Source of the DNA: a virus | Taxonomy: Duplodnaviria; Caudoviricetes | Reading direction: 5' to 3' (one strand) | Length of the DNA: 29,498 bases | Virus record (IMG/VR): IMGVR_UViG_3300020042_004974 | Location: 1-29,498 of that record | Shown here: positions 1 to 28,711 of the stretch, piece after piece | How the letters are laid out: every line of letters begins with the position of its first letter | Position numbering within the stretch: position 1 is the stretch's first letter | Notes under the pieces: generated by a model | What the model was told of the DNA's origin: nothing | The model's input: the letters and a program-made list of their open reading frames with translations, nothing else | Database searches by the model: none | Translations under genes and position numbers: made by a program

Positions 1-244
1 TCCTAAAGATTAGCTCATTAACCAATTGATTGAATCTATCAAATAAAAACTTCTTCTTATTATACCAAAAATACACATGGCCCGCATTTAATGTGTAGAT
101 AAGAGATACTCTACCGGATTGATACCCGTTTACAGAGTTTAATGTCCGCTTAAGAGAGCCATGAACCATTGGCAACTCCCTATACTCTGCCATCAAATGT
201 TGGTCAGAAAGCAAAGTAACATCGACGGTGTTGATCCGTGTCAC
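1..244 (-). CDS. denV: Pyrimidine-dimer DNA glycosylase / endonuclease V (3' end runs off the window)
   Basis: Not in the ORF track. GTG at 244 translates to MTRINTVDVTLLSDQHLMAEYRELP...YTLNAGHVYFWYNK, matching the T4 DenV pattern MTRIN...DQHLMAEYRELP...LGAGHV.FFY.K. Catalytic Thr2 and Glu23 are at identical positions. Confidence 0.95.
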   Translation of the reverse strand, partial: MTRINTVDVTLLSDQHLMAEYRELPMVHGSLKRTLNSVNGYQSGRVSLIYTLNAGHVYFWYNKKKFLFDRFNQLVNELIFR

Positions 245-312
245 CTATTACTTACCTAAATGGTGGACAACTATGGTGGGACCAATTACACACACAAGCG
301 CCAATAGTTCAA

Positions 313-558
313 TCATTCTTCAACTCCGAAATGTTTTTTGATAAGATTACGATACTTGGTTTGAAATAACATTTCCTCTGGTGTATACTGATTGCCTAAT
401 TGCATACGCAGGCAAGTATCAGCACATTCCAAAACAATCAACTCGGCAAACACAGATAGGTGTTGATCAGTACCGGCCAATACACTCCATCCAAAAGATT
501 TATCCTCAAACAAGCCAATCTGAGCGTGTTCAGCAAGTTCTCGAATTCTCTCGTTCAT
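313..558 (-). CDS. Small MNERI/HFGVEE-family protein, copy A
   Basis: 81 aa with blocks MNERIRELAEHA / FAELIVLECA / IKKHFGVEE shared with other ORFs in the window. Confidence 0.85.
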   Translation of the reverse strand: MNERIRELAEHAQIGLFEDKSFGWSVLAGTDQHLSVFAELIVLECADTCLRMQLGNQYTPEEMLFQTKYRNLIKKHFGVEE

Positions 559-668
559 TATTTCAACTTACCCATAAGTTTAGCAAGCATTTCCATAGCC
601 TTTTCCGTTTGCTCTGTCTGATGCTTCAGTCTATCTTCAAGAAATTTAATGTATTCGTCTTTACTCAT
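558..668 (-). CDS. Hypothetical 36-aa protein
   Basis: Manual translation MSKDEYIKFLEDRLKHQTEQTEKAMEMLAKLMGKLK; ATGA and TAATG overlaps with both neighbours; GGAG upstream. Confidence 0.65.
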   Translation of the reverse strand: MSKDEYIKFLEDRLKHQTEQTEKAMEMLAKLMGKLK

Positions 669-823
669 TGTTCAACTCCATATTGTTCCATCCATTCTAT
701 TAAAATTTTCCTTGCTTCCTGTCTAGAAAGATTAAAACGATCTTCAAGCCATGGTGCAGCGCCAAACATATTTGTGACCCCACTCTCTCGGAGAAAATCA
801 AGATATTCATAGTATTCGTTCAT
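665..823 (-). CDS. Small phage protein (LRESGVTNMFGA type)
   Basis: Manual translation MNEYYEYLDFLRESGVTNMFGAAPWLEDRFNLSRQEARKILIEWMEQYGVEQ; ATGA-coupled on both sides; GGAG RBS. Confidence 0.8.
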   Translation of the reverse strand: MNEYYEYLDFLRESGVTNMFGAAPWLEDRFNLSRQEARKILIEWMEQYGVEQ

Positions 824-1026
824 TCTTCAACTCCGAAATGTTCTCTAATCAAATCACCCTGTGTCTTACCACCTTCGGCAAGTATCCAATCAACTTTACC
901 AGCACATTCTCGTACAATCAACTGAGCAAACTTTTCTTTATCAAAGTCCCAACACACCCCATCATGGGCCAAAGGATCGATGTAGGTAGTAGCCTGTTCA
1001 GCAAGTAGTTTAATCCGCTCATTCAT
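820..1026 (-). CDS. Small MNERI/HFGVEE-family protein, copy B
   Basis: 68 aa; MNERIKLLAEQA / KFAQLIVRECA / IREHFGVEE. Confidence 0.85.
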   Translation of the reverse strand: MNERIKLLAEQATTYIDPLAHDGVCWDFDKEKFAQLIVRECAGKVDWILAEGGKTQGDLIREHFGVEE

Positions 1027-1622
1027 TGCTCAACTCCGTAATCATCTTTCAACATAAAACCCAACCTATCTCCGGCTGCACTAGGATAGAACTGATCTCT
1101 CCATACAGGGATAATAGTAGTAGCTTGGTGATTAGCAAAGTCATCATTGTATCTAAAATGGACTTCAATCACCCTACCTCCTATCACTTCCACATTAAAC
1201 CACTCATATCTGTCTGCAACAGTCTGTAATATGATTGGCAACGTGAAGATATCCTCAATCTTTGTCCAATGACTGAATCTATCCAACCTCAACGGATCAC
1301 TCCTGAACCCCTCGACTGCTAGCACTTGCTTACCCCAATTGTAGTCAAAGCTCAAATGACGACCGGTAAACAGCTCGCACCAGAAATATCCATCAGCAAT
1401 AGAATCTGAGTCCAAATACTGTACCGTAGCACCAGCTGACATCATTCTTATATTGACAACAGGCCTCACTACATACTGGCCAGCAATTGTTGGCGCAATG
1501 CCAGCTGGACCACAAAGATATCCCAGCTTCTTTGCTAAGATTAGTTTATCAACACACCAAAGATCATCTACAGCTATGCTACCAAATACATCTGCATCCC
1601 CTATTTGAGGTAACTTGACCAT
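1023..1622 (-). CDS. Phage protein, possibly ATP-grasp-like
   Basis: 199-aa ORF; 'VVRP' and C-terminal 'NVEVIGGRVIEVHFR' resemble ATP-grasp metal-binding strands. The fold is an inference. Confidence 0.55.
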   Translation of the reverse strand: MVKLPQIGDADVFGSIAVDDLWCVDKLILAKKLGYLCGPAGIAPTIAGQYVVRPVVNIRMMSAGATVQYLDSDSIADGYFWCELFTGRHLSFDYNWGKQVLAVEGFRSDPLRLDRFSHWTKIEDIFTLPIILQTVADRYEWFNVEVIGGRVIEVHFRYNDDFANHQATTIIPVWRDQFYPSAAGDRLGFMLKDDYGVEQ

Positions 1623-1679
1623 TTAATACTTTCCCGATGCCAATAATATCTTACAAATTGTTTCTAACATTTCGCTCCT

Positions 1680-1799
1680 CTACGCCATCACAATAGCAAT
1701 TGCTGCCAACATAAAAATCAGCACAGCACCTACAATAGGCAAGATGATGTGCATGTACTTTACTACTTCCTCAACAGGATCGGGTTCGTGGTCATTCAT
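1680..1799 (-). CDS. Small single-pass membrane protein (39 aa)
   Basis: Manual translation MNDHEPDPVEEVVKYMHIILPIVGAVLIFMLAAIAIVMA; ATGA overlap with the upstream gene. Confidence 0.7.
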   Translation of the reverse strand: MNDHEPDPVEEVVKYMHIILPIVGAVLIFMLAAIAIVMA

Positions 1800-2098
1800 A
1801 TCTTGGGTCCAGTAAATATATAAGTGCTCGATCCACCAGTACCCAACACACACGCTATTGTATCATCAAACTGAATTAATGTCCACGTCTTTGTATCATC
1901 ATTGACAAATAAACCATACTTTGACATTACAGCATCGGATTCTGTACCAACCCATATTGGCTTTTCTTTGTAATCGCTACCACTCAGTCCCCGTAGCATT
2001 ACTTCTGTACTAATACACTCTACAGTTTTTTGTAGGTTGATAGTTTGTGCAGCCACATATCCAAATACTAGTGCCAGCAAAAATAGTATGTATTTCAT
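1796..2098 (-). CDS. Hypothetical exported protein with two Cys
   Basis: Signal-peptide-like MKYILFLLALVFGYVAA; C-terminal TWTL...ACVLGTG. Confidence 0.75.
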   Translation of the reverse strand: MKYILFLLALVFGYVAAQTINLQKTVECISTEVMLRGLSGSDYKEKPIWVGTESDAVMSKYGLFVNDDTKTWTLIQFDDTIACVLGTGGSSTYIFTGPKI

Positions 2099-2141
2099 CT
2101 AGTTAATTAAGATCCGTAAAAATAATATCGCTTTAATTATT

Positions 2142-2363
2142 TCATTCATGTTCAACACCGTTTGCTTTGTCTATTAGATATTGGGCATGATCTCCATTGA
2201 TAGGTGTGCCTTTTAGAACAAGGTAATCATGCATCGCCATCATAGCATTACTAAACCAAGCCACCATGTCAACGTCAGTTAAGTCCGGATTACTTTCATA
2301 AAAAAACTTTGCCCATGCTCTCGCATCTGGATTGGTGTGTATAGTCATATCATAATCACTCAT
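2142..2363 (-). CDS. Hypothetical protein
   Basis: 73-aa ORF, ATGA-coupled, ends GVEHE. Confidence 0.75.
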   Translation of the reverse strand: MSDYDMTIHTNPDARAWAKFFYESNPDLTDVDMVAWFSNAMMAMHDYLVLKGTPINGDHAQYLIDKANGVEHE

Positions 2364-2584
2364 TCTTCAACTCCAAAATGTTCCTTGATTCTCATACCGT
2401 TTGTTTTAGTAATATATCCGCAACCGACTGAATTGGATCTCTCCGTATCAGCAATCCCGGCACACTCTTTCACAATCAATTGGGCAAACTCTTGTTCGAA
2501 CTCATCCGACAACCGGTATGCCCAACTACTACCCATTGGTTTAATTCTGGCCTCATCAGCAAGTTGCTTGATCCGCTCATTCAT
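2360..2584 (-). CDS. Small MNERI/HFGVEE-family protein, copy C
   Basis: 74 aa; MNERIKQLADEA / EFAQLIVKECA / IKEHFGVEE. Confidence 0.85.
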   Translation of the reverse strand: MNERIKQLADEARIKPMGSSWAYRLSDEFEQEFAQLIVKECAGIADTERSNSVGCGYITKTNGMRIKEHFGVEE

Positions 2585-2793
2585 TTAATATTATACCGAT
2601 TGAAGATCTCTTTACGAAGATTGTATGCTTGCTCTACTCTCAATTCCGTACTATCATAACAAAACTGAGCTAAGTCTCTTATCACCAACTCAGCAAACTT
2701 GGACGTAAACGCTTCGTCTAGTGATCTTGATTCTGTTATCAACTCACGCTCAGCCCAAGCTTTCTCTACCAATTGTTTGATCTTTTCATTCAC
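2581..2793 (-). CDS. Divergent MNERI-family protein, copy D
   Basis: 70 aa; MNEKIKQLVEKA / KFAELVIRDLA / IFNRYNIK. Confidence 0.8.
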   Translation of the reverse strand: MNEKIKQLVEKAWAERELITESRSLDEAFTSKFAELVIRDLAQFCYDSTELRVEQAYNLRKEIFNRYNIK

Positions 2794-3038
2794 TTTGTAG
2801 GACCACCATAGACCTGAGACTCTAACTGAGCAATACGCTCATTTGCTCTACGCAAACTGTTATTTGCATCATTGAGTTGTTGTGACAAAGCCTTTATTGC
2901 TTCACCCATTGCTAGGATTGCTTTTGTCTCTTGTTCCTGTACTGTTTCCATGGTATTTCCTAATCCATAAACATAATTACGTTTTCTATCGAACTCAAGC
3001 TGTGCTTCATGCGTTCCCAGTTTAAATTCTTGGGTCAT
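2790..3038 (-). CDS. Hypothetical coiled-coil protein
   Basis: ORF track gives 2790..3059; likely start is MTQEFK at 3038 after AAGGA; heptad-like C-terminal half. Confidence 0.7.
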   Translation of the reverse strand: MTQEFKLGTHEAQLEFDRKRNYVYGLGNTMETVQEQETKAILAMGEAIKALSQQLNDANNSLRRANERIAQLESQVYGGPTK

Positions 3039-3039
3039 C

Positions 3040-3738
3040 TCATTCCTTCTTATCGCCAAACAACTGTAGTAGGCTTAGGAAGATATTAATGAAATCAAGA
3101 TATAATGTCAACGCACCTTGTACTTCTACAGACGGACTAGAATCGACACTGACCATTTCTCGGATCTGTTGTGTATCATATGCAGTAAGACCCATGAAGA
3201 TAACAATTGCTAACGCACTGATCACCATCTGCATTACACTACTGCCAATAAAGATATTGATGATACTAGCAATGATGATAGCAATTAATCCAACAAACAT
3301 AAACTTACCTAGACTATCCAAACTACGTTTAGTAAAATATCCATAAAAGCTCATCGTTCCGAATAGGACACTCGCTCCCATAAACGCACTAAAGATACTT
3401 GCCATCGTGTATACAGCAAAGATCACAGCAAAGCTAAGTCCCATGATCGCTGCAAACCCTGCTAGCAATAGGATAGCAGTTTCCTTTGGTGGGTTCTTAT
3501 TAAGAGCAAAGCTGATTCCAAATACAGCAACCAACGGTGCAAAGATTACTACCCAATGCATCACCCCCGTAAAAAAGAACTTAACCAATTCCGGATTAGT
3601 TCCCACAAACAAACTAACAACCATACTGACTAATGTCGCAAGTCCCATGTAACCATACACACGGCCCATTGCTTGATTAATTTCACCAGCAGTCCTATAA
3701 CTTGCAAATTCATTACCTGAATAGTTTATACCAAACAT
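3040..3738 (-). CDS. Bax inhibitor-1 / YccA (TMBIM) family membrane protein
   Basis: About 7 hydrophobic segments; hallmark GLTAYDTQQIR and ALTLYLDFINIFLSLL; AAGGAG RBS. Confidence 0.93.
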   Translation of the reverse strand: MFGINYSGNEFASYRTAGEINQAMGRVYGYMGLATLVSMVVSLFVGTNPELVKFFFTGVMHWVVIFAPLVAVFGISFALNKNPPKETAILLLAGFAAIMGLSFAVIFAVYTMASIFSAFMGASVLFGTMSFYGYFTKRSLDSLGKFMFVGLIAIIIASIINIFIGSSVMQMVISALAIVIFMGLTAYDTQQIREMVSVDSSPSVEVQGALTLYLDFINIFLSLLQLFGDKKE

Positions 3739-3801
3739 ATCGATCTCCTTAAATTAATTTCGACTTCCTACTTAAAAACGTTGACTGTATACTTAATGTT
3801 A

Positions 3802-4041
3802 TCACTTCACACCAAAATGTTTAAGCATGTGCAATGCTTGCGCTTCAGACTCGGGATAGTTGTCAATGATGAAGTCGGCGCATTTGGTAATAACCAAATT
3901 GGTTAGTTGATCTGCATCTACTTTAGGTGGAACATACTTAACGATGATCCCTTCTTGGAACGGCAGCTTGTTTCCATCTAACGGAAGTATATCAGATTGC
4001 TTGGTAGCTTGCTCTACGAGCTTCTTTACATCATCTATCAT
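3802..4041 (-). CDS. Divergent MNERI-family protein, copy E
   Basis: Start reassigned to ATG 4041 (ATGA overlap): MIDDVKKLVEQA / LTNLVITKCA / LKHFGVK. Confidence 0.75.
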   Translation of the reverse strand: MIDDVKKLVEQATKQSDILPLDGNKLPFQEGIIVKYVPPKVDADQLTNLVITKCADFIIDNYPESEAQALHMLKHFGVK

Positions 4042-4154
4042 ACCAAATAACCAATTAGCATTCCAAATGCAAATGCTACTAATGACACATACAACAGCGA
4101 TATCGGATACCACACATGGTCTTCCATAATTTTGACTAACCAACTAATATCCAT
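4038..4154 (-). CDS. Small membrane protein (38 aa)
   Basis: Manual translation MDISWLVKIMEDHVWYPISLLYVSLVAFAFGMLIGYLV; TGATG and ATGA overlaps with neighbours. Confidence 0.65.
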   Translation of the reverse strand: MDISWLVKIMEDHVWYPISLLYVSLVAFAFGMLIGYLV

Positions 4155-4495
4155 CATCTTGATATCCTCAGTTCTGCGTCAGGATTATCTTTGCATGCGT
4201 TGTAGTATTGATGAACGAACTTAACGAGTCCTTGATAATGTCCCCATCCGTTTTCTGGATTGAATTGATTGAAATAATCAGGGTCGGTTACCAACACTCT
4301 CCACCCCGTATGCAGACACTCAACAATCTCGCGAGCATAAACATATCCATGCTCATCTGGCCGCCAGAGAATATCATATAACGTTCTTCCCTCACCAACG
4401 TCAACAGCCTTGGCCATCTCACCAAGGTTATGAGTGATGTTAGCACTATACACAGATGTGGGTTGCGTTACCATTAAATCAACATCTAAACTCAT
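4154..4495 (-). CDS. Hypothetical phage protein
   Basis: 113 aa; ANITHNL...LWRP...FNPENGWG pattern. Confidence 0.8.
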   Translation of the reverse strand: MSLDVDLMVTQPTSVYSANITHNLGEMAKAVDVGEGRTLYDILWRPDEHGYVYAREIVECLHTGWRVLVTDPDYFNQFNPENGWGHYQGLVKFVHQYYNACKDNPDAELRISR

Positions 4496-4581
4496 ATTAT
4501 ATCCACATTACTGGTTGTTAAGTGATATACCAATGCAAGCAGCATTAGTACAATTATAAAATATTCAATAAGGTTCTTCAT
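4492..4581 (-). CDS. Small hydrophobic peptide (29 aa), probably leaderless
   Basis: MKNLIEYFIIVLMLLALVYHLTTSNVDII; ATG 6 nt after a -10 box; ATGA overlap with the next gene. Confidence 0.5.
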   Translation of the reverse strand: MKNLIEYFIIVLMLLALVYHLTTSNVDII

Positions 4582-4587
4582 GTCTAT

Positions 4588-4616
4588 ATTATCCATTCTA
4601 AACACAATAATGACAA
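4588..4616 (-). promoter_or_regulatory. Sigma70-like early promoter
   Basis: TTGTCA-17 bp-GATAAT in an intergenic gap. Confidence 0.7.
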
Positions 4617-4699
4617 CTAGCTATTATATATCCCAAAATTCGAGATATACTACATAATTTGTCTTCCACTGGAAAGAGGTTGGATACTATAGTATTATA

Positions 4700-5062
4700 C
4701 TAGGAAAAGTCTAATCCAAACTCACCAGCACTATCCTTTAGCTGATCAATATCCCGACTATAATGCTCGGACAACAGCTCAATGTAAGCACCCACAAACC
4801 TAGGGCCATGCTTATCTCTCTCGATGAAGTGAGCACATTCGTGTATCACACTCCACTTTGTTCTACTGAACTTCGGCATACAGATCTGTCTAATAGAATA
4901 CTTTGCACATGGTGACCTTCTTGCTCTTCCGTCCGTTACTTCTATAAACGGAATTATACTAGAAGCAAGTTGTTGGCATTGATCGAGTGTTAGGATTGTA
5001 TCATCCCACTCATATTCCATCCTCTCCCACTTATACAACTTACTGCGTTGATAGTCTCTCAT
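4700..5062 (-). CDS. Zincin-like (SprT/M48-type) metalloprotease domain protein
   Basis: VIHECAH (HExxH) followed by HGPRF. Confidence 0.75.
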   Translation of the reverse strand: MRDYQRSKLYKWERMEYEWDDTILTLDQCQQLASSIIPFIEVTDGRARRSPCAKYSIRQICMPKFSRTKWSVIHECAHFIERDKHGPRFVGAYIELLSEHYSRDIDQLKDSAGEFGLDFS

Positions 5063-5207
5063 TTATTTCTCTGATTTTGTCTGAATGGCAGTGTTTAAAC
5101 ATCTTACAATAATATTCAAAACGACGAGGCTCGTGTTCCGGATTAGGGAGATCGGGCCAACATTCAATCATTACATCTAGTATTGCTTGTGCTTTCTCGT
5201 CTGTCAC
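5040..5207 (-). CDS. Hypothetical 55-aa protein
   Basis: GTG start in a GTGA overlap; MTDEKAQAILDVMIECWPDLPNPEHEPRRFEYYCKMFKH...; fills the gap in the ORF track. Confidence 0.7.
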   Translation of the reverse strand: MTDEKAQAILDVMIECWPDLPNPEHEPRRFEYYCKMFKHCHSDKIREINERLSTQ

Positions 5208-5644
5208 TTTAATTTCTCAGCTACAACTCTATCACCAGCATCATCGCCAAACGACATATTCTCTCTATGGATGATGATTAAGTCCTTTCTTGCAAGCGAC
5301 TCAATTGTTAGGTATGTAATAAAGATGGCAACCCTTGCTCTTGCTGTTGCAATCATCTCCTTCTCATCGGAATACTCATTAGGTATACCTTCAGCAGCTG
5401 CTAGCATTTCAGGTATTAGAACCAACTCTTCGAAGTGACAATTATCCTCATCATCAGCAATATCAAGTAACAGCTCAATATCTTGATCTGATATATCTCT
5501 CATAAAGTCTCCCACAACAAGGTATGGGTTCTTTATAATATCAATTGCTAATAGACGTGTAACGGGAAGGAATGATTTATCTTCGGAGACTTTATCGAAT
5601 CTAATTGACATACTATCTTTTTCGCTCATAACCGTTCCTTCCAA
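5204..5644 (-). CDS. Hypothetical acidic protein
   Basis: 146-aa ORF in operon context; start may be the internal MSEKD. Confidence 0.75.
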   Translation of the reverse strand: MEGTVMSEKDSMSIRFDKVSEDKSFLPVTRLLAIDIIKNPYLVVGDFMRDISDQDIELLLDIADDEDNCHFEELVLIPEMLAAAEGIPNEYSDEKEMIATARARVAIFITYLTIESLARKDLIIIHRENMSFGDDAGDRVVAEKLK

Positions 5645-5647
5645 AAC

Positions 5648-5845
5648 TTATTTCGACTTACGTGCAAACCGCACACCACCAAACGATCCACCGATTAACA
5701 ATGATGCTAACCATGTTTCGAATGTATACTGAATGTTTGCTACTGGGAATATTGTATTGACACACCAGATCCAAACAAATGGACCAAATATTACAATGAA
5801 TGCCACCAGTGCAACAATTGCTAGAATTTTAAACGTATCAGACAT
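5648..5845 (-). CDS. Small two-TM membrane protein
   Basis: Likely start MSDTFKILAIVALVAF after AAAGG; two hydrophobic segments. Confidence 0.7.
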   Translation of the reverse strand: MSDTFKILAIVALVAFIVIFGPFVWIWCVNTIFPVANIQYTFETWLASLLIGGSFGGVRFARKSK

Positions 5846-6041
5846 TTTCAAACCTTTCATAATAATCATACTTAATACCAAAATGCTCAGCAATTAATCT
5901 TGCTAACTCTTGCTCGACGTGTTGTGCTTGACCTAAATCAAATGTAGTCCTCACACCTGGGTAATTAGGAACCTTGTCGGACCTAATAATTTTAATACAT
6001 TGCTTAACTATAAGCAGTTCATCGTTCGTTAATTGACGCAT
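5838..6041 (-). CDS. Partial or derived MNERI-family protein, copy F
   Basis: Start ATG 6041 after GAGG/AAGGA; contains LIVKQC and IAEHFGIK but lacks the N-terminal block. Confidence 0.6.
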   Translation of the reverse strand: MRQLTNDELLIVKQCIKIIRSDKVPNYPGVRTTFDLGQAQHVEQELARLIAEHFGIKYDYYERFENV

Positions 6042-6591
6042 TCCTTTTATCCTCACATGGCTGACAATAGGTATGAACCCAACCCCCACCTCTACGCTTG
6101 CCTGGATTGCCACACGACTCACAAGTGACTCCTGTCATTGATTCGGCTAGGGTAACCATTCCGCTAATATAATCATCGCCACCAGTGTAGTAGAAACGTA
6201 GCGTACCAAACTTCTCTTTGACCTGATCTAGAGTTACTTGAGGACACTCAGCCGGTACATCTCTCAACTCAGCTTTATGGTCAATAATGCTTTGACGGAG
6301 CTCATTGTTCCACTTACTTGGGTCGTGATATATTTGATCGAACTTAGTCCAGTCAGCAGGAATCCTTTGAGCATCAATGATTGCTTGGTTGTGTGCAATT
6401 GCTCTAGCTCGTTGACCATTCTTCCAATCAATGTGGTGTTGGATGTTACCCATTAGTTGATCTAAGATGTTGAACCAACCATCTCCACAATCGAATCCCC
6501 AACACATACAAGTTTCTTGCATGGGCTTATTACGATTAACCATCATCTTAGGATACTTCTCGCATAGAAGTTTGTCTAAATCTAAATTCAT
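6019..6591 (-). CDS. Hypothetical phage protein with C-terminal zinc finger
   Basis: CGDGWF...QVKEKFGTLRFY...CESCG...YCQPC. Confidence 0.85.
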   Translation of the reverse strand: MNLDLDKLLCEKYPKMMVNRNKPMQETCMCWGFDCGDGWFNILDQLMGNIQHHIDWKNGQRARAIAHNQAIIDAQRIPADWTKFDQIYHDPSKWNNELRQSIIDHKAELRDVPAECPQVTLDQVKEKFGTLRFYYTGGDDYISGMVTLAESMTGVTCESCGNPGKRRGGGWVHTYCQPCEDKRNASINER

Positions 6592-6813
6592 CTAGCCTCC
6601 ATAATACTTTATCAATAGGTCCATTGCTTTAATCAGCTTCATGTTGTTGACTACATCATCCGGATGTAACCAATATCCAGTAGGATTATTATCGTCCTTT
6701 GGATTGGCTTCCCATTGATCTAACTCCGATTGAAGGTATCTACGAGCCTCGATCAAGTTGGTCTTTGTAATCCCGTCAGCGACTTCAAAAGGAATTGTCA
6801 GGTCAGGTATCAT
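6592..6813 (-). CDS. Hypothetical protein
   Basis: Likely start MIPDLT at 6813; WLHPDDV motif. Confidence 0.7.
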   Translation of the reverse strand: MIPDLTIPFEVADGITKTNLIEARRYLQSELDQWEANPKDDNNPTGYWLHPDDVVNNMKLIKAMDLLIKYYGG

Positions 6814-6814
6814 A

Positions 6815-7036
6815 TTAATGTGTAAACATCGGTTGTGGTTTATCAAATTGCTTACTCTGTATAGTACTTAGCAGCTTATGAAAATCATCCTCTGAGCCTG
6901 TCTCTCTGCATGCCCATATCAAACGCGCATTGAATACAGCAGCAAGAGATAGCGGTGCTATTTGATGTTTATTTGACAAGGACGCTAAAATTTCATCAAC
7001 TTCGCGTGTAATTACAATTAATTGATCGTGGGTCAT
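6815..7036 (-). CDS. Hypothetical protein, first gene after an early promoter
   Basis: 73 aa; AGGAG RBS. Confidence 0.75.
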   Translation of the reverse strand: MTHDQLIVITREVDEILASLSNKHQIAPLSLAAVFNARLIWACRETGSEDDFHKLLSTIQSKQFDKPQPMFTH

Positions 7037-7060
7037 AAAATTCTCCTATCATTGTACACG

Positions 7061-7089
7061 ATTCTACAGTAAAACTACACGAATGTCAA
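7061..7089 (-). promoter_or_regulatory. Sigma70-like early promoter
   Basis: TTGACA-17 bp-TAGAAT. Confidence 0.85.
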
Positions 7090-7113
7090 CAGCCTAAATA
7101 TAAAGGCCATAAT

Positions 7114-7121
7114 CATAAATA
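7114..7121 (+). promoter_or_regulatory. T4-type late promoter (gp55-like sigma)
   Basis: CATAAATA, one mismatch to TATAAATA, upstream of structural genes; a second CTAAATA at 7094-7100. Confidence 0.7.
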
Positions 7122-7129
7122 GTACAAAA

Positions 7130-7226
7130 TACACACCTTAGGACCGTTATCTTGCAAGTGTGTACAAATGGAGGCCCCTGCCAACTACATCGCATAACGC
7201 CATTTGCGAGAACATAAGTGGGGCAC
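7130..7226 (+). ncRNA. Candidate structured RNA in the late leader (family unassigned)
   Basis: Six complementary segment pairs within 97 nt, including loop-loop pairings (see findings). Confidence 0.55.
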
Positions 7227-7247
7227 TAATTCAATAAGGAAAAAGAG

Positions 7248-7586
7248 ATGGCAGCCGATAATACAATCGATCTAGTAATCAATCAAAAGGCAAGTTTTGA
7301 AGTAACGTTCACAGTTAAAGAAGCTAACACTGCTCTTAACTTGACTGGATATACTACTTCTGCTAAACTAAAGACTGATTTCAATACACCAGACAGTCAG
7401 GCTATTACTTTTACTACAGCAGTTGCCAATGCTGCAGCTGGTCAAGTGACCATGTCACTAACACCAACCCAAACAGCCAACCTTAGTCTGCAACGCTACT
7501 TCTACGATTATACTATTACAGCTAATACTGGTTTTAAGACTCGTATTGTTGAAGGTACTGTTAAGGTAAGTGGCGGGGTGAGCTAA
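7248..7586 (+). CDS. Virion structural / baseplate-tail adaptor-like beta protein
   Basis: LVINQKASF..LNLTGY..GQVTMSLT..T..L..RYFYD..RIVEG.V.V pattern typical of BppU-N-like phage proteins; AAGGA RBS. Confidence 0.7.
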   Translation: MAADNTIDLVINQKASFEVTFTVKEANTALNLTGYTTSAKLKTDFNTPDSQAITFTTAVANAAAGQVTMSLTPTQTANLSLQRYFYDYTITANTGFKTRIVEGTVKVSGGVS

Positions 7587-8872
7587 TGACTACAGTTACA
7601 ACTACCCTCGTATCGGGTCAGAATGCACACGTTGGTGTTGTATCAAGCCGTGGTGAATATTCAGTAACTGTTAACAGTGGTGTACAAGGACCAACTGGCG
7701 CCAATGGCGTAAGCATTACTGCTGCTAACGTTGTTAGTGGTAATCTTGTTCTCACACTTTCCAATACATCAACGATAGATGTTGGAGGAGTTGTTGGAGC
7801 TAACGGAGCTAACGGATCGAATGGAGCTGCTGGTGCTAATGGTGTTAGTATTACTGCCGCTAACGTTGTTTCTGGCAATCTTGTATTAACATTTTCCAAT
7901 ACATCTACTCTTAATGTAGGAGCAGTTGTTGGGGCAAACGGTACTAATGGCAGTAACGGGACTAATGGAACAAATGGTACTAACGGAACCAATGGAACGA
8001 ATGGCACTAACGGAACAAACGGAGTTAGCGTCACAGCAGCAAGTGTTGCAACAGGCAATCTTGTAATTACATTATCCAATACATCAACAATAGATGTAGG
8101 TTCCGTAGCTACCAACGTTGCTGCTCCATACGCTTGGACTAACACTCAATCATTTTCTAACTCAGTCACATTTAGTGGTAGTGCGGTTGTTCCTTCTTCT
8201 AACACATTAGGAACAGCTCTTGGTTCTACTACTCAGCGTTGGGTGTTGATTGCAAACACCGGAACATTTAGTGGAGCAGTATCAGGTATTACAACACTAG
8301 CAACTGGTAATACAACCATCACCGGATTTGCTAACGTCACTACTACTATTCAGGGTGGTTCTACTTTAATAATTGCTGGTGCAGCTTCTGGCATTACTAC
8401 TCTAGCAGCTGGCAATACTACTATTACTGGTTTTGCTAATGTGTCGTCTACTTTGCAAGTAACTGGAGATACAACACTATCAGCTAACTTGACTGTCACT
8501 GGTAACGTGGCTGGCAACACAGCAGGCTTTGCAATCGGTTATAGGGATATACCACAGAACTTTACAAACACATCGATGACGTTAGCGTTAACCGATGCTG
8601 GTAAACATATCCTTACTCAGAACTCTGGTGCATCTACTCAAACGATTACTATTCCACCAAACGGTACAATAGCATTTCAAACAGGAACAGCTATTACAAT
8701 CGTTGTTCAATCAGCTGGAACAATAGCAGTAGCAAACGGCGCTGGCGTGTCAATGTACCTTACTGGTAACAGCACTGCTAAATCGACCGTAACTCTCAGC
8801 TCCTATAGTATGGCAACCCTACTGAAGATTGGTACAAATTCCTGGATTGTTAGCGGTACAGGAGCTACTTAA
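7586..8872 (+). CDS. Tail fibre-like protein with collagen-like Gly-X-Asn repeats
   Basis: G/T/S/A/N-rich; GxN triplets; internal repeats; C-terminal IGYRDIPQN...DAGKHI...ATLLKIGTNSW domain. Confidence 0.8.
   Translation: MTTVTTTLVSGQNAHVGVVSSRGEYSVTVNSGVQGPTGANGVSITAANVVSGNLVLTLSNTSTIDVGGVVGANGANGSNGAAGANGVSITAANVVSGNLVLTFSNTSTLNVGAVVGANGTNGSNGTNGTNGTNGTNGTNGTNGTNGVSVTAASVATGNLVITLSNTSTIDVGSVATNVAAPYAWTNTQSFSNSVTFSGSAVVPSSNTLGTALGSTTQRWVLIANTGTFSGAVSGITTLATGNTTITGFANVTTTIQGGSTLIIAGAASGITTLAAGNTTITGFANVSSTLQVTGDTTLSANLTVTGNVAGNTAGFAIGYRDIPQNFTNTSMTLALTDAGKHILTQNSGASTQTITIPPNGTIAFQTGTAITIVVQSAGTIAVANGAGVSMYLTGNSTAKSTVTLSSYSMATLLKIGTNSWIVSGTGAT
7697..8106 (+). repeat. Three ~30-aa NGVS.TAA.V..GNLV.T.SNTST..VG units separated by Gly-X-Asn triplets
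   Basis: Visible in the translation; degenerate 9-bp tandem array at 7931-8023. Confidence 0.9.
8282..8443 (+). repeat. Duplicated 19-aa unit SGITTLA(T/A)GNTTITGFANV
   Basis: Copies at 8282-8338 and 8387-8443. Confidence 0.85.
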
Positions 8873-9593: not shown

Positions 9594-11711
9594 ATGGACA
9601 TAGAAACTCGCAAGAAAATATCCCGGGCAATGAAGGGGAAATCGAACTTTGAAGGGCATAAACATACGCATGCTTCAAAGATTGCCATTGCTTTCTCACA
9701 GGAAGGCCATAAAAACGCTAAAGATCATAAGTGGGCTGTTGATAAAGAGACGGGGAAAGAAACACGTATAAAGCCTGGCGCACACCTTCCTAGAGGGAAT
9801 AAATGGGGTCGCACAGCTGGGTTTAAAGAATGGATCAAGGAAGAAGTGTTGTTGGAAAAGAAAAAGGTTGCAGATGCTATCGAGGACTTTACTCAATTTG
9901 CAAAACAACACCTTAATTTAGATTCTCTTCCGCAGATAGATCTCAACTACGATTTAGAAGCAGCAGAGAAGTTTGGTGCTTTTGGTGGTTATTATCCAGA
10001 AGAGCAGCGTATTGAATTGAACGTTGCTGGTAGACACACAATGGATATTCTTCGTACGCTTGCACACGAGCTTGTTCACTACCGTCAAGGATCAACCGAG
10101 CCTTTGCCAGAGGATGCTGGTGATACCGGATCCCCATACGAGAACGAAGCAAATGCATTGGCCGGTGTTATGATGAGAGAGTATGGCCAACAAAACGCTG
10201 GTATGTTTAGTGAGAATTTTATTGATGGTCGTAATCCACAAGACAAAGGTGATGTGGCTCGCCACGGTTTAAAAAACAAAACTATGGCTCAATTGAAAAA
10301 GATTAGAAGTTCCAAAACAGCAACTCCAAGACAAAAACAATTAGCACATTGGTCTATCAATATGCACAAAGAGAGTGTTGTGATGGAAGATTTGCGTAAG
10401 TGGTTTAGAGAAAAATGGGTCCGTATGGACACTAAGGGTAACATTAAGGGTGATTGTGCAAGAGAGCCTGGAGAGGGGAAACCCAAATGTTTACCGTTAG
10501 CCAAAGCTCAAGCGATGGATAAAAAAGATAGAGCTACTGCTACTCGTAGAAAGAGAAGAGAAGATCCAAATCCTGATCGTCAGGGAGCTCCGATCAACGT
10601 AAAGACAGAAGAATATAATAACTCTGTCAAGAGATTAGAAGGTACAACAAGTCTTGCTAAGATCTATAAAAAAGATACACCAGGTCAAACAAACAAGACT
10701 CTGAAAGAGCAAAACATGAATGGCTATAATAATTGGAACAATGCTGAGCCCGTAAAGTATGCTAAACATCTAGAAAAGTTCTTTGGTAAACCAAAAGAGC
10801 TTACAGACAACAGAGCTATCTGGCATGATGTTGATAGCTTCAAAAGAATTGAAGTGTTAGATGAATATATTATGCATGCCTCTCCTGCCCCACACCACGA
10901 CTTCGTATACTGCTACCTAGATTTAAAAGTTCCAACCAACTTAGCAAATAAGTTAGCAGAGAGCAGCGAGAGCATAACGATTGACTTTTTAAAGAATGAA
11001 GTTGGGGCTAGATGTGCAAGCTTGGCAGCAAACGCAGTTACATTAAATTATGTTATGGACGTTGTAGAGAAGAAAATAACACCATCTAAACAAGCATATG
11101 AAAAAAGAATTATGGATATGCATGCTATGTTTGAGAATGGAAAGAGGTTTCAGCTTGACTGGTGGCCAGACACAACAAAAGATACAGATCCTAAAAACCC
11201 TTACTACAAACTAACAGAATCTTGTAACCATTCAAAAGAAGAAAATATGATTAACGAAAAGAATGTACCAACCCAACCAGAAAAATGGGCTCAAGCAAAA
11301 GCTCAAGCTAAGCAAAAGTTTGACGTCTATCCATCAGCATATGCTAATGGGTGGGCTGCTAAGAAGTATAAAGCAATGGGTGGAAGCTGGAAGTCGGTAG
11401 CCGAGGCTAGCTCACCAGCACAGCAAGCAGCAATAGCGATTGCCAAAAAGAATGATGAACCCGGACAGAATAAAAGATCTCTAAAACAACTAAGAGAAAT
11501 GATCGGCCAAAAGCCTAAGTGTGATGTTTGTGGTGATAACATGGTTCGTGGAAGAAAGCATGAGTGCACAGTGAAAGAAGCTCGCATGAGTGCTGCTATG
11601 AAACTTCACCGTGCGTTCACAAGAGAACAAGAGAAGTCTGCTGCTTCTCGCGCTCGTGCTGAGAAGTTGCTGAACCCTACACCTCCAGCACCCATCGTTC
11701 CTAAAAAATAA
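9594..11711 (+). CDS. Modular late protein (NUMOD3-like N-terminus, HExxH metallopeptidase-like domain, several basic modules); putative head-packaged protein
   Basis: RKKISRAMKGK; LRTLAHELVHYRQ...ENEANA; LRKWFREKWV...PKCLP; PSAYANGWAAKKYK.MGGSW; CDVC...HEC. Confidence 0.7.
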   Translation: MDIETRKKISRAMKGKSNFEGHKHTHASKIAIAFSQEGHKNAKDHKWAVDKETGKETRIKPGAHLPRGNKWGRTAGFKEWIKEEVLLEKKKVADAIEDFTQFAKQHLNLDSLPQIDLNYDLEAAEKFGAFGGYYPEEQRIELNVAGRHTMDILRTLAHELVHYRQGSTEPLPEDAGDTGSPYENEANALAGVMMREYGQQNAGMFSENFIDGRNPQDKGDVARHGLKNKTMAQLKKIRSSKTATPRQKQLAHWSINMHKESVVMEDLRKWFREKWVRMDTKGNIKGDCAREPGEGKPKCLPLAKAQAMDKKDRATATRRKRREDPNPDRQGAPINVKTEEYNNSVKRLEGTTSLAKIYKKDTPGQTNKTLKEQNMNGYNNWNNAEPVKYAKHLEKFFGKPKELTDNRAIWHDVDSFKRIEVLDEYIMHASPAPHHDFVYCYLDLKVPTNLANKLAESSESITIDFLKNEVGARCASLAANAVTLNYVMDVVEKKITPSKQAYEKRIMDMHAMFENGKRFQLDWWPDTTKDTDPKNPYYKLTESCNHSKEENMINEKNVPTQPEKWAQAKAQAKQKFDVYPSAYANGWAAKKYKAMGGSWKSVAEASSPAQQAAIAIAKKNDEPGQNKRSLKQLREMIGQKPKCDVCGDNMVRGRKHECTVKEARMSAAMKLHRAFTREQEKSAASRARAEKLLNPTPPAPIVPKK

Positions 11712-24788: not shown

Positions 24789-24937
24789 TTTTTAGTTTCT
24801 TTTTTCCACTCCAAGCAAACAACTTTTCTCTCATACACATCACCAGTCCAAGACCACCTGACGCATTTCATTTCTTGCGAGTAGGAATGTGTTGTCAGCG
24901 TAGTTAATACTAATATTGCCAACAACAAGTATTTCAT
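24785..24937 (-). CDS. Small exported protein with a two-Cys Trp-rich hairpin (50 aa)
   Basis: Manual translation MKYLLLAILVLTTLTTHSYSQEMKCVRWSWTGDVYERKVVCLEWKKETKK; ATGA overlaps on both sides. Confidence 0.8.
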   Translation of the reverse strand: MKYLLLAILVLTTLTTHSYSQEMKCVRWSWTGDVYERKVVCLEWKKETKK

Positions 24938-25410
24938 TTTGCTAGAGGATTATCTAATGCTTTTTGTATCTTACTGTCTATCTCTTTACGAATTTGGCGC
25001 ATGTCTTGATCCACTTCTCGGTTGAGTTGTTTACCATCTCGCTCTACTTGCTCAACTACTTTTTCTAATCTACGGACATCTTGCTTCAAGTCGTTCTTGA
25101 TATCTTGAGTATACTGTACAGACTTTTCTGAGTTTTGCATAGTGATTTCCATCTTCTTGTTTAGTTCAGACAAGTCTGGCGCCACATACTCAGCAATACG
25201 CTTCTTCATACCTTGATAATCTTTGTATACTTCAAACGTGCCGTAAAGGCCACCAAGAACGGATGATATAAGGGTTGCAGCAACCATTAGTTTAGCTGGA
25301 GTAAACTCGTAGCCTCCGATTGAGATTACAGTATCCTTACTTGCAAACTTCTTTGCTGCTGCTTCTAACTCATCGACCTTCTTATTAAGATCTACTTTCT
25401 CTTCTGACAT
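24934..25410 (-). CDS. Single-TM coiled-coil protein, short paralog
   Basis: TM then heptads; ends KALDNPLAK. Confidence 0.85.
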   Translation of the reverse strand: MSEEKVDLNKKVDELEAAAKKFASKDTVISIGGYEFTPAKLMVAATLISSVLGGLYGTFEVYKDYQGMKKRIAEYVAPDLSELNKKMEITMQNSEKSVQYTQDIKNDLKQDVRRLEKVVEQVERDGKQLNREVDQDMRQIRKEIDSKIQKALDNPLAK

Positions 25411-25424
25411 AGCTTCCTTCTTCC

Positions 25425-26021
25425 TTAATTGGACAGAGGATTATCCAACGCTTTCTTAATCTTCATATCAACTTCACTTCTCAACGCACGGATTTCCGCT
25501 GTTGTTTCTTTTTGGTTTTTAACTAACTCTTGTGTTACTTCTTTCACACTCTGATCACTATATCTACGAACTTCTTTTAATGTAGTGTCAGATTCTTTTT
25601 TAATTTCTTTAATTGCTTGGTCAGTATCTCTCTGACTAGACTTTGTAGATCTTTCCATATTCTCAACAACAGACTCTACTCTACGAACATCTTGCTTTAA
25701 GTCGTTCTTAATGTTGTTAGTATATTCAGTCATCTTGCTAGTGTTTGCATCTAAGACTTCCATCTTTTTATACAACTCAGTCAAGTCTGGTGTGACATAC
25801 TCGGCTATCTTTTTCTTCATGCCCATGTAGTCTTTATACACTTCGAACGTGCCATAAAGACCACCTAGCAATGAGGAAACTAATGTAAATGCTACCATCA
25901 GCTTAGCTGGAGTAAATTCATACCCACCAATACTAATTACTGTGTCTTTGCTAGCATACTTTTTGACTGCTGCCTCGGCTTCGTCAATCTTTGCGTTGAC
26001 GTCTTTAATTTCTTCTGCCAT
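25425..26021 (-). CDS. Single-TM coiled-coil protein, long paralog
   Basis: Shares ASKDTVISIGGYEFTPAKLMVA and KALDNPL with the neighbour. Confidence 0.85.
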   Translation of the reverse strand: MAEEIKDVNAKIDEAEAAVKKYASKDTVISIGGYEFTPAKLMVAFTLVSSLLGGLYGTFEVYKDYMGMKKKIAEYVTPDLTELYKKMEVLDANTSKMTEYTNNIKNDLKQDVRRVESVVENMERSTKSSQRDTDQAIKEIKKESDTTLKEVRRYSDQSVKEVTQELVKNQKETTAEIRALRSEVDMKIKKALDNPLSN

Positions 26022-26801: not shown

Positions 26802-28711
26802 TATCTACCTTCATATTGTTTCTCCACCATTTCATTATGAAGTCTATCAGTGCCACCAAACATTCTCAAGTTGGCCCGATTGTCAATAGTTTTTTGATTT
26901 CCATAAACTTGATATGGTTTATAGAATTGTTGCTGTACAATTAATTGTTTGCCATAAGCATCAAACCCAGGAGTGAATCCCATTGCTTGAATTACTACAT
27001 TCTGCACAGCTTTCTGAGCTTCTAGATCAGATGCTTTACCCATTTGATTGGCAAGGTCTTTACCCTTTTCTACTGCTTCTGCTTTTGCTGCAGCTTCTCT
27101 TCGTTCTTGGAGTGCTTGTCGAGCAGTTGGTGCTGCCGGTTTATCAGATGACGCTTGAGCAGTACCAGTATTCTGTGACGGAGAACTGCCTCCAGAGCCT
27201 TTCGGAGCATCATCTTTTTTGTCCTCTGATTTTTGTTCTTGTCTAGCGGCTGGTTCAGCATTTGCTGTTTGGGTTGAAGATCCGGATGCAGCTGGTCCAG
27301 GCGAATTCATGGAAGAGGCAACGGGACTATTGCCAGTAGATGCAGCTGGTCCATCCATTCTTGGAGTTGTAATTGCAGCGTTCACGTTACTATCATTTGT
27401 AAGAGCGACACCAGTAGAAACTTGTCCTGAGTTGCTGATCGAAGTTACTGGCTGAGTTGTCGATACATTAGTGGCCCCTGGACCAGAATAACCTGATGTA
27501 GCTGGTCCAGCATTTGAGTTTTGGGTAGTCGATGTGTCACAGCCAACCGTACATCTTGAATCAGCTGGCCCATAACTTATTGTTCCAGAAGATGGAATGC
27601 CCAATACATATCTTCTTGCATATGCGTCTGCATAATTGGGGCATGTTCTGTCATACAATCCATCTAATGTGCATTGTTGTGCTTTATACGCTTCAGCATA
27701 ACCAGTACACGTAGTTGAGTAAAGAGGATTAATGGAACACTGATGAGTTAAGTAGGCAGCTGCATAGCCTGGACATTGTGTATTATATAATGAATTTATT
27801 GAACATTGTTGAGTCAAAAAAGCAGCTGCATAACCTGGGCATGATAGATCAAATAATGCACTTATTGCACATTGTTGAGTTGTGTATGCAGCTTGGTATC
27901 CTGGACATGAGGGCAATGATAGTGGATTAATAATACACTGATCGACAACATTAGTACCACTCAAAGCCCCCCAACTGAACCCAGTCGTTGGACCAGTAAG
28001 TCCCATTCCATTATAGAGTTGAACGTGTTGACCTTGCGATAAATCTCCAGTCATACCAATAGTAACGCCGTGTGTTGAGGAAATAAATGTTCCACCATAA
28101 CGAACATCAAATGCGCCACTATTGTTTATTTTTAATTCAAATGTGTTTCTATTATCTCTTTGGCCATATTGACTTTGATTGTACCACCCATAAGTCATAG
28201 AGTCTGCTGTTCCACGATAGTAGGTAGTATTACCATCGAAGTCAACTAAGTCTGTCCATAATGGCATAATAGAATAATTATGACCAGTGTTTGTGTTTGT
28301 AGTCAAATCTGAACCATGGCAACAGAAAGCGTTGTTCCAAGTTGGCCAACCATTGGTAGGAACTGGCCTTCCAAACTGGACTACCCCGTTGCTATACATT
28401 GTGGATTCGTTAAATGACTGTCCCCAATAAGAAAATTGGAATGGCAATGGAATATTCTTCCACCCATCATCTCCCATTTGAATAAGGGTCGAATCGGTTA
28501 GATTATTAATATTTTGAAGGGGTAGTGCAGCAGAACCCTGACCAACGGTAATGGATAATCCAGAGTCTCCGGGAATTGGAATTGATACCAAACTACCTGT
28601 CCCACCATTAACAGTAGTCACGGTTAGATTAGTTCCAGGAATCAATAGTTGTGCTTGTGCTACTGAAATACTCAGTAAACAACTAAACAAAAGAACAACT
28701 AGAGACTTCAC
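26801..28711 (-). CDS. Exported protein with NIDO-like domain, Cys-rich repeats and low-complexity stalk
   Basis: Signal peptide; GDDG...IPLPFQFSYWGQSF...SNG...IMPLWTDL...NTFE; S/T/A/P/G-rich region. Confidence 0.8.
   Translation of the reverse strand: MKSLVVLLFSCLLSISVAQAQLLIPGTNLTVTTVNGGTGSLVSIPIPGDSGLSITVGQGSAALPLQNINNLTDSTLIQMGDDGWKNIPLPFQFSYWGQSFNESTMYSNGVVQFGRPVPTNGWPTWNNAFCCHGSDLTTNTNTGHNYSIMPLWTDLVDFDGNTTYYRGTADSMTYGWYNQSQYGQRDNRNTFELKINNSGAFDVRYGGTFISSTHGVTIGMTGDLSQGQHVQLYNGMGLTGPTTGFSWGALSGTNVVDQCIINPLSLPSCPGYQAAYTTQQCAISALFDLSCPGYAAAFLTQQCSINSLYNTQCPGYAAAYLTHQCSINPLYSTTCTGYAEAYKAQQCTLDGLYDRTCPNYADAYARRYVLGIPSSGTISYGPADSRCTVGCDTSTTQNSNAGPATSGYSGPGATNVSTTQPVTSISNSGQVSTGVALTNDSNVNAAITTPRMDGPAASTGNSPVASSMNSPGPAASGSSTQTANAEPAARQEQKSEDKKDDAPKGSGGSSPSQNTGTAQASSDKPAAPTARQALQERREAAAKAEAVEKGKDLANQMGKASDLEAQKAVQNVVIQAMGFTPGFDAYGKQLIVQQQFYKPYQVYGNQKTIDNRANLRMFGGTDRLHNEMVEKQYEGR
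27611..27940 (-). repeat. Five tandem 22-aa repeats QC-x9-C(P/T)(G/N)Y..A(Y/F)
   Basis: QCIINPLSLPSCPGYQAAYTTQ and four following copies. Confidence 0.9.

Follow-up and report, generated by a model that had tools for sequence, protein, structure and literature searches.

A very large phage mini-gene family whose segments and neighbouring genes are exchanged at conserved coding blocks

Short conserved sequences at which phage genes are exchanged are known from several systems. In the gp38 adhesins of T-even phages, variable segments lie between conserved core motifs and are exchanged at or near these motifs (Trojet et al. 2011, PMC3157838). The small-gene regions of T4-type phages are plastic and contain short repeated elements, the PeSL cassettes of RB49 and phi1 (Arbiol et al. 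2010, PMC2839356), and conserved boundary sequences at phage mosaic junctions direct homologous exchange (summarised in PMC3029335). Also, T4 Ip1-3 are small polymorphic accessory proteins with a common N-terminal motif, and each Ip blocks a single GmrSD variant (Silas et al. 2025, PMC12373910). Here, a 29,498-nucleotide (nt) stretch of DNA from a virus of the Caudoviricetes (IMG/VR record IMGVR_UViG_3300020042_004974), referred to as the window and corresponding to the entire 29.5-kb virus record, is analysed for a family of small genes composed of three conserved blocks and two variable segments.

The blocks of this family act as DNA crossover points, and its shuffling architecture is highly probable. 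As an overall explanation, we lean towards a very large phage mini-gene family in which segments and neighbouring genes are exchanged at the blocks, and whose products would likely be host-binding three-helix proteins. For the binder role by itself, which is suggested by analogy, the chances appear evenly balanced.

The gene family, its members in the window and its carriers

Six open reading frames (ORFs) of the family are present in the window, all co-oriented on the - strand, three complete and three degenerate. The complete genes have the layout block 1, segment 1, block 2, segment 2 and block 3, the last forming the junction with the next gene, and all three blocks are recognised in them at the protein and DNA level. 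The members, with lengths in amino acids (aa) and E values from a hidden Markov model (HMM) of the family, are:

313..558, - strand: complete family gene, 81 aa; block 1 at 523-558, block 2 at 424-459, block 3/junction at 313-342
820..1026, - strand: complete family gene, 68 aa; block 1 at 991-1026, block 2 at 904-939, block 3/junction at 820-849
2360..2584, - strand: complete family gene, 74 aa; block 1 at 2549-2584, block 2 at 2462-2497, block 3/junction at 2360-2389
2581..2793, - strand: degenerate member, 70 aa, with blocks 1 and 2 only; HMM E 5.3e-9
3802..4041, - strand: divergent member, 79 aa, with a weak block 1 and block 3; HMM domain E 1.1e-3
5838..6041, - strand: partial member with a block-2 remnant, segment 2, block 3 and an extended tail; HMM E 3.1e-4

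The HMM was seeded with window ORFs and their homologues, four of the window ORFs being among the seeds and ORF 5838 not. It matches 6 of the 6 ORFs and 0 of 24,246 reversed-ORF decoys, in agreement with a preliminary description of this DNA that had proposed the six ORFs to be one family sharing up to three blocks. Block 3 is missing from ORF 2581-2793 (block score -2.6), and no DNA-level block match scores above 20 in the degenerate copies (2581, 3802 and 5838). For ORF 3802, the start is most likely the ATG at 4041, giving 79 aa, rather than that at 4143.

A search with one window ORF recovered 612 homologues among 2,042 candidates, and the collection of homologues with a profile, a step proposed in the same description, extended the family to 10,351 clusters at 50% identity. 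Its proteins are 56-144 aa long. The locus set analysed below comprises 365 sequences (364 fetched loci and the window, 4.2 Mb) and contains 1,005 family members, every one on the query strand. Three blocks are found in 806 of these 1,005 members, corresponding to 624 distinct genes, and the other 199 were excluded from the segment analyses.

The carriers are large freshwater (lake) phages, jumbophages. The data sets in which the DNA of the region is best represented are mostly freshwater metagenomes, and the RNase H-like gene of the window shows ~50% identity with its counterparts in T4-like phages of Stenotrophomonas, Synechococcus and Methylophilales. Five large carrier genomes of 317-400 kb were tested; gp23 and a RecA-family gene are present in all five, and the family matches number 2-18 per genome. 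No cultured carrier was found by tblastn of ORF 820 against 50,697 GenBank phages, which returned one weak partial match (E 0.5). A scan of GTDB gave 17 loci, all in contigs of metagenome-assembled genomes (MAGs) from mixed phyla; these are probably binned phage DNA, and no host is assignable from them. One of the family members lies in a 183-kb MAG contig binned as Haliscomenobacter (L379), possibly a binned phage.

In Pfam and PHROGs the six ORFs have no match, save two weak Pfam matches below the cut-off to ORF 2581, and any single Pfam or PHROG family is matched by at most 1 of 94 aligned members. The ESM Atlas returned unnamed viral clusters only. Moreover, no description of the family was found among the papers searched, and the supplements of freshwater-phage studies could list it as an unnamed cluster; the string HFGVEE occurs in 0 of these papers.

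Exchange of segments and neighbouring genes at the blocks

Clustering of the segments at 60% identity in the 624 unique complete genes gives 358 segment-1 and 350 segment-2 clusters, which occur in 560 combinations. At least two partners are found for 109 of the 122 multi-gene segment-1 clusters and for 106 of the 113 multi-gene segment-2 clusters, and nine four-gamete squares are present. Reassortment, for which the preliminary description had suggested a test, is observed, with linkage partly retained. Chao1 lower bounds put the repertoire at no fewer than about 790 segment-1 and 730 segment-2 alleles.

The segments of the window illustrate this reassortment. For ORF 820, segment 1 has 8 partners and segment 2 has 24; for ORF 313, segments 1 and 2 have 5 and 5; and the segment-2 cluster of ORF 2360 pairs with 24 different segment-1 partners. 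In a list of 120 homologues of ORF 2360, ~100 (by visual count) combine its segment 2 with a different segment 1, and five combine its segment 1 with one of four other segment-2 types. Segments of different window paralogues are also found fused, as in P0081, where segment 1 of ORF 820 is joined to segment 2 of ORF 2360, and likewise in L256. Some of the swaps are recent, because 123 of the 1,989 pairs with unrelated partners share one segment at 97% DNA identity or more. A segment is seldom common to two paralogues of one locus (9 and 6 of 934 pairs for the two segments). The segments had been called hypervariable, which holds between paralogues only; across phages, each segment recurs nearly unchanged.

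Identity along the genes changes abruptly at the blocks. In pairs that share one segment, DNA identity is ~0.85 up to the block and ~0.3 past it, for all three blocks, and inside the blocks unrelated genes are 0.5-0.9 identical. A total of 941 distinct homology breakpoints were obtained, 768 of them in array regions, collapsing to 669; of these, 530 (79%) lie at blocks, compared with 28% for random positions. For matches of at least 300 nt, 105 of 161 breakpoints lie at blocks.

Comparison with close relatives shows individual exchanges, and these strain-level cases are more direct evidence of exchange at the blocks than the breakpoint count. L188 and L189 contain long matches that are 96-99% identical to the window. 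The cargo gene at 2142-2363 is missing in L188, L189 and L190, and the corresponding joint, from 2109 to 2356, is also present in runs X2 and X4. In L189, another gene follows block 3 of ORF 313, replacing the 22-codon ORF 248-316, which a run X1 contig also skips (joint 244-308). In L190, another gene lies upstream of block 1 of ORF 2581. Moreover, the downstream gene differs in 86 of the 92 multi-gene segment-2 clusters. A joint that goes back from 1013 to 815 occurs in runs X2 and X4; it could come from a mini-circle of the PeSL kind, and tandem family genes in other phages explain it equally well. The identity switches, the breakpoints and these cases of gain, loss and replacement support the earlier suggestion that the blocks serve as DNA crossover points.

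The blocks are also conserved at silent sites. In a set of 280 genes whose segments are all different, they retain unpreferred codons: CGA is used at 89% compared with 14% in the background, GCC at 80% compared with 21%, and TTG at 86% compared with 24%. For genes with unrelated segments, the same-codon probability in the blocks is 0.71 at 64% protein identity, whereas a neighbouring control family gives 0.50 at 55-70% protein identity (194 pairs); synonymous conservation, a check proposed at the outset, is thus present. The blocks are equally alike within loci (identity 0.796) and between loci (0.786), which indicates a pool shared across phages and leaves homogenisation of the blocks within genomes unsupported.

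The end of block 3 consists of GGAG, 7 nt and ATGA, that is, a Shine-Dalgarno-like site followed by a stop/start overlap (ending GVE(E/Q)-stop). The 7-nt spacing is kept in 446 of the 624 genes, and in 466 of them the following gene begins at offset -4. Judged from these motifs, block 3 doubles as a putative ribosome site and as the start of the next gene. The unrelated ORFs 665-823 and 1023-1622 end in the same junction, and ORF 2142-2363 ends in a degraded form of it. The neighbours of the family genes in the window are:

248..316, - strand: hydrophobic ORF of 22 codons, coupled to the junction of ORF 313
558..668, - strand: non-family gene, 36 aa, coupled between a junction and block 1 of ORF 313
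665..823, - strand: non-family gene, 52 aa, family D5, ending in the block-3 junction at 665-679
1023..1622, - strand: non-family gene, 199 aa, phrog_3577, ending in the junction at 1023-1037 and coupled to block 1 of ORF 820
2099..2149, - strand: ORF of 16 codons whose beginning resembles block 1, at the far end of cargo gene 2142-2363; probable remnant
2142..2363, - strand: non-family cargo gene, 73 aa, between two junction copies; the gene absent in L188, L189 and L190
7061..7089, - strand: best sigma70-like site (11/12), a consensus match only, upstream of the whole - strand small-gene cluster

This cluster occupies bases 1-7036, where small - strand genes are densely packed and many are coupled via ATGA overlaps. 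The region holds 28 sigma70-like sites compared with 25.5 in shuffles, that is, no excess, and six RNA runs contain small shares of its words (0.11-0.17). Within the cluster, a Bax inhibitor-1 family membrane protein (PF01027, E 1e-55) is encoded at 3040-3738 on the - strand, and this gene is 100% identical in L188 and L189.

Related modular genes were also observed in the locus set. A sister small-protein family with the same three-block layout and different block sequences, and a chimera that combines block 1 of the present family with blocks 2 and 3 of the sister family, occur at L033:9390-9626 and L010:8620-8862. The sister family has no Pfam or PHROG match above the cut-off and gives weak matches in 35-42 kb phages. 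A longer gene at L010:9403-9819 ends in block 2, segment 2 and block 3 of the present family, and its N-terminal part resembles another modular small-gene family.

Elsewhere in the window, a fibre-like low-complexity protein of 428 aa is encoded at 7586-8872 (+ strand), with 9-nt and 105-135-nt repeats, and a 705-aa mosaic ORF lies at 9594-11711 (+ strand), separate parts of which match six PHROGs, one being a metalloprotease family. Two neighbouring paralogous coiled-coil-like genes at 24934-26021 (- strand) share an N-terminal hydrophobic segment (repeat D12); next to them, a gene of 636 aa has three cysteine-containing repeats of 66 nt (27732-27908).

Predicted proteins, proposed role and alternatives

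Of the block pairs found with DNA profiles alone, 565 of 567 and 574 of 582 are in frame and free of stops. Within alleles, the ratio of nonsynonymous to synonymous substitution rates (dN/dS) is 0.127 and 0.116 for the two segments in protein-defined clusters, and 0.10-0.14 for pairs defined on DNA only, with 1.1-1.9 in a shifted-frame control. Each segment is thus one of hundreds of alleles under purifying selection and not a mutational hot spot, and the diversity arises by recombining conserved modules rather than by hypermutation.

AlphaFold models were obtained for ORF 820 (94 aligned sequences) and ORF 313 (66 aligned sequences), with predicted local distance difference test scores (pLDDT) of 88.3 and 87.9, respectively, and predicted template modelling scores of 0.72-0.73. 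In both models, the blocks form helices 1, 2 and 3 and segment 1 forms a beta-hairpin; segment 2 is modelled as a loop in one case and as a helical extension in the other. The blocks are therefore predicted to encode a common three-helix scaffold. A small helical scaffold, or alternatively DNA crossover points, had been proposed in the preliminary description; the two models (pLDDT 88) are in line with the first and the exchange data with the second, so that each idea stands and only their opposition does not, since both hold together. The two models match many uncharacterised models labelled 'uncultured Caudovirales', at template modelling scores of up to 0.76 and 0.82. A sequence search of PDB gave a best E of 0.2. 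For the ORF 820 model, Foldseek returned no PDB match at E <=0.001, and VIA-align returned a best Z of 3.8 among 48,161 chains, which does not by itself prove a new fold. The proteins are acidic, with a median net charge of -5 (n=606) compared with -1 for 1,625 small control genes, and D, G, H, W and Y are overrepresented in their segments. A membrane segment was flagged in 1 of 624 members.

As for the mechanism, crossovers would take place between co-infecting, otherwise divergent jumbo phages, with the phage's own UvsX/RecA-type recombinase using the 30-36 nt blocks as homology. Because all blocks are in one frame, and with the built-in ribosome site, nearly every crossover would be viable, giving either an intact chimera or a translated neighbour. 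Each segment may then be a binding module retained by selection for a host target. Defence or nucleic-acid-binding proteins would be the likeliest targets, since the surfaces are acidic and aromatic-rich, and the proteins may act early in infection; strong sigma70-like sites are slightly denser near the arrays (324 in 1.35 Mb compared with 450 in 2.49 Mb). Acidic phage inhibitors exist generally and provide an analogy for the binder role. In its furthest form, which we put forward tentatively, this would be an antibody-like two-segment library of freshwater jumbo phages, in which the constant helices of a new small fold serve as scaffold and recombination signal, hundreds by hundreds of preselected binding modules are recombined between divergent phages, and the products neutralise defences or take over host proteins.

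Several points weigh against this explanation. Regarding exchange, the loci were fetched with window-derived queries, which enriches shared segments, and 8 of the 9 four-gamete squares involve a queried segment. Linkage between the segments is only partly lost and reassortment is incomplete, segment 2 being also common in 100 of 593 pairs that share segment 1 compared with 1% under permutation. The breakpoint test is partly built in, as alignments that reach a universal block run through it, and chimeric assembly at repeats could raise the number of combinations. The silent-site conservation could result from frequent exchange and not from selection for it. A RecA-family gene is expected in T4-like phages regardless of shuffling, and none is present among the searched ORFs of the 29-kb window. 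Regarding the proteins, purifying selection fits any conserved function and not specifically binding, no diversifying selection is seen within alleles, and a host-binding or anti-defence role is something we infer by analogy. Also, the location among small accessory genes and the same-strand sigma70-like sites give early expression weak support.

A different account would be that the constant three-helix core does one shared job, with the segments merely tuning stability or host compatibility. Residues of the core show strong conservation, several faces of helix 2 are hydrophobic (F33, A34, L36, I37, V38 and C41), which may suggest a further conserved interface, and degenerate copies with a partial core persist. 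Nonetheless, the dN/dS of the segments is as strict as that of ordinary genes, and distinct functions fit better with an allele repertoire of this size and with paralogues in one locus that rarely share a segment, so we consider a single shared job unlikely.

The silent-site conservation might instead reflect base pairing of block 1 with block 2 in an RNA stem controlling translational coupling, and not recombination homology. Modal blocks 1 and 2, one of the three pairings tested, do pair at -17.6 kcal/mol, synonymous shuffles giving -10.9 (fraction 0.038), and one position pair exceeds 300 shuffles in pairing, with G-C to U-A changes. However, across 80 genes the ensemble pairing probability never exceeds 0.14, an excess is lacking in 4 of the 6 pairs tested, the folding of whole genes is not better than that of their recoded versions (-0.13 +/- 0.84, n=40), and a stem leaves the breakpoints and block 3 unexplained. 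As a replacement for recombination homology it is very unlikely, and such a stem could coexist with it.

That the blocks are a self-propagating recombination and translation-coupling cassette ferrying cargo, the protein being incidental, is highly improbable. This would agree with the gain or loss of cargo at the junction, with the junction motif that also ends ORFs unscored as family at 88 of 406 sites (some of them maybe missed members), and with lone blocks 1 and 3 at 9 of 532 and 28 of 563 sites. However, frames are almost always kept, the models are confident and of one fold, and the purifying selection on the segments largely refutes it. Finally, loops commonly diverge faster than cores, but ordinary paralogue drift of this kind, already held inadequate in the preliminary description, is scarcely credible, being refuted by the step-like identity changes, the breakpoints at blocks, and the reassortment seen in the four-gamete squares and near-identical swapped segments, unless the chimeras are assembly artefacts. 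That description had named uniform divergence without reassortment, or no common fold, as contrary outcomes, and the homologues display neither.

Comparison with known systems

Two described sources of gene diversity were considered. A diversity-generating retroelement, which would combine a reverse transcriptase with adenine-directed mutation of a variable repeat, was rejected: a crude reverse transcriptase motif occurs 0 times in the 365 loci, the segments are non-homologous modules and dN/dS is ~0.1. For an integron array, which would have a tyrosine integrase and attC sites, a crude tyrosine-recombinase motif occurs 0 times in the loci, the part of the genomes that was scanned.

T4 Ip1-3 would be the functional model for the binder idea. 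The Ips share only a capsid-targeting peptide, whereas the N-terminal block of the present family is predicted to be part of the fold. The capsid-targeting motif that was used matches 0 of 624 members, and L/I-x-E is found at positions 8-10 in 247 of 624. Like the boundary sequences of phage mosaics, the blocks are short conserved stretches at gene edges that guide exchange; unlike those sequences, as summarised, they would form the core of a folded protein and are present in many copies per genome.

With gp38, the family shares a population-wide library of interchangeable modules, its segments being swapped at conserved motifs. However, gp38 is a virion adhesin present in single copy, its motifs are glycine-rich and its role in receptor binding is known, while the present family is multi-copy (2-18 matches per genome) and predicted to be helical, and its terminal blocks also swap neighbouring genes. 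The blocks are not glycine-rich, and no Pfam, PHROG or PDB sequence match was found.

With PeSL, the family shares repeats that mediate gene gain, loss and replacement by recombination and that end in a Shine-Dalgarno site and a start codon; the blocks also mark breakpoints between related genomes, as PeSL does. However, PeSL is an intergenic promoter and stem-loop, whereas all three blocks lie inside ORFs, and their homology is protein-coding and in frame, with one block in mid-gene, so that half-genes are shuffled. In positions 1-7300 of the window, no terminator-like site was found at any block, and one weak promoter-like match (9/12) lies at a block edge (586-557).

The significance of the family lies in a coding sequence that would have three roles at once, as protein core, crossover homology and translation start of the next gene, and in more than 10,000 clusters (50% identity) that lack a name, a Pfam or PHROG model and a clear solved fold. 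In its natural chimeras, the effects of segment 1, segment 2 and core can be told apart, which amounts to a factorial experiment on small accessory genes, and if the segments are binders, the family would offer naturally occurring anti-defence proteins and also a new display scaffold of 70 aa. In comparison with the described systems, the family works like the shuffling of gp38 and PeSL and belongs to neither, one coding element being scaffold, mid-gene crossover and inter-gene joint.

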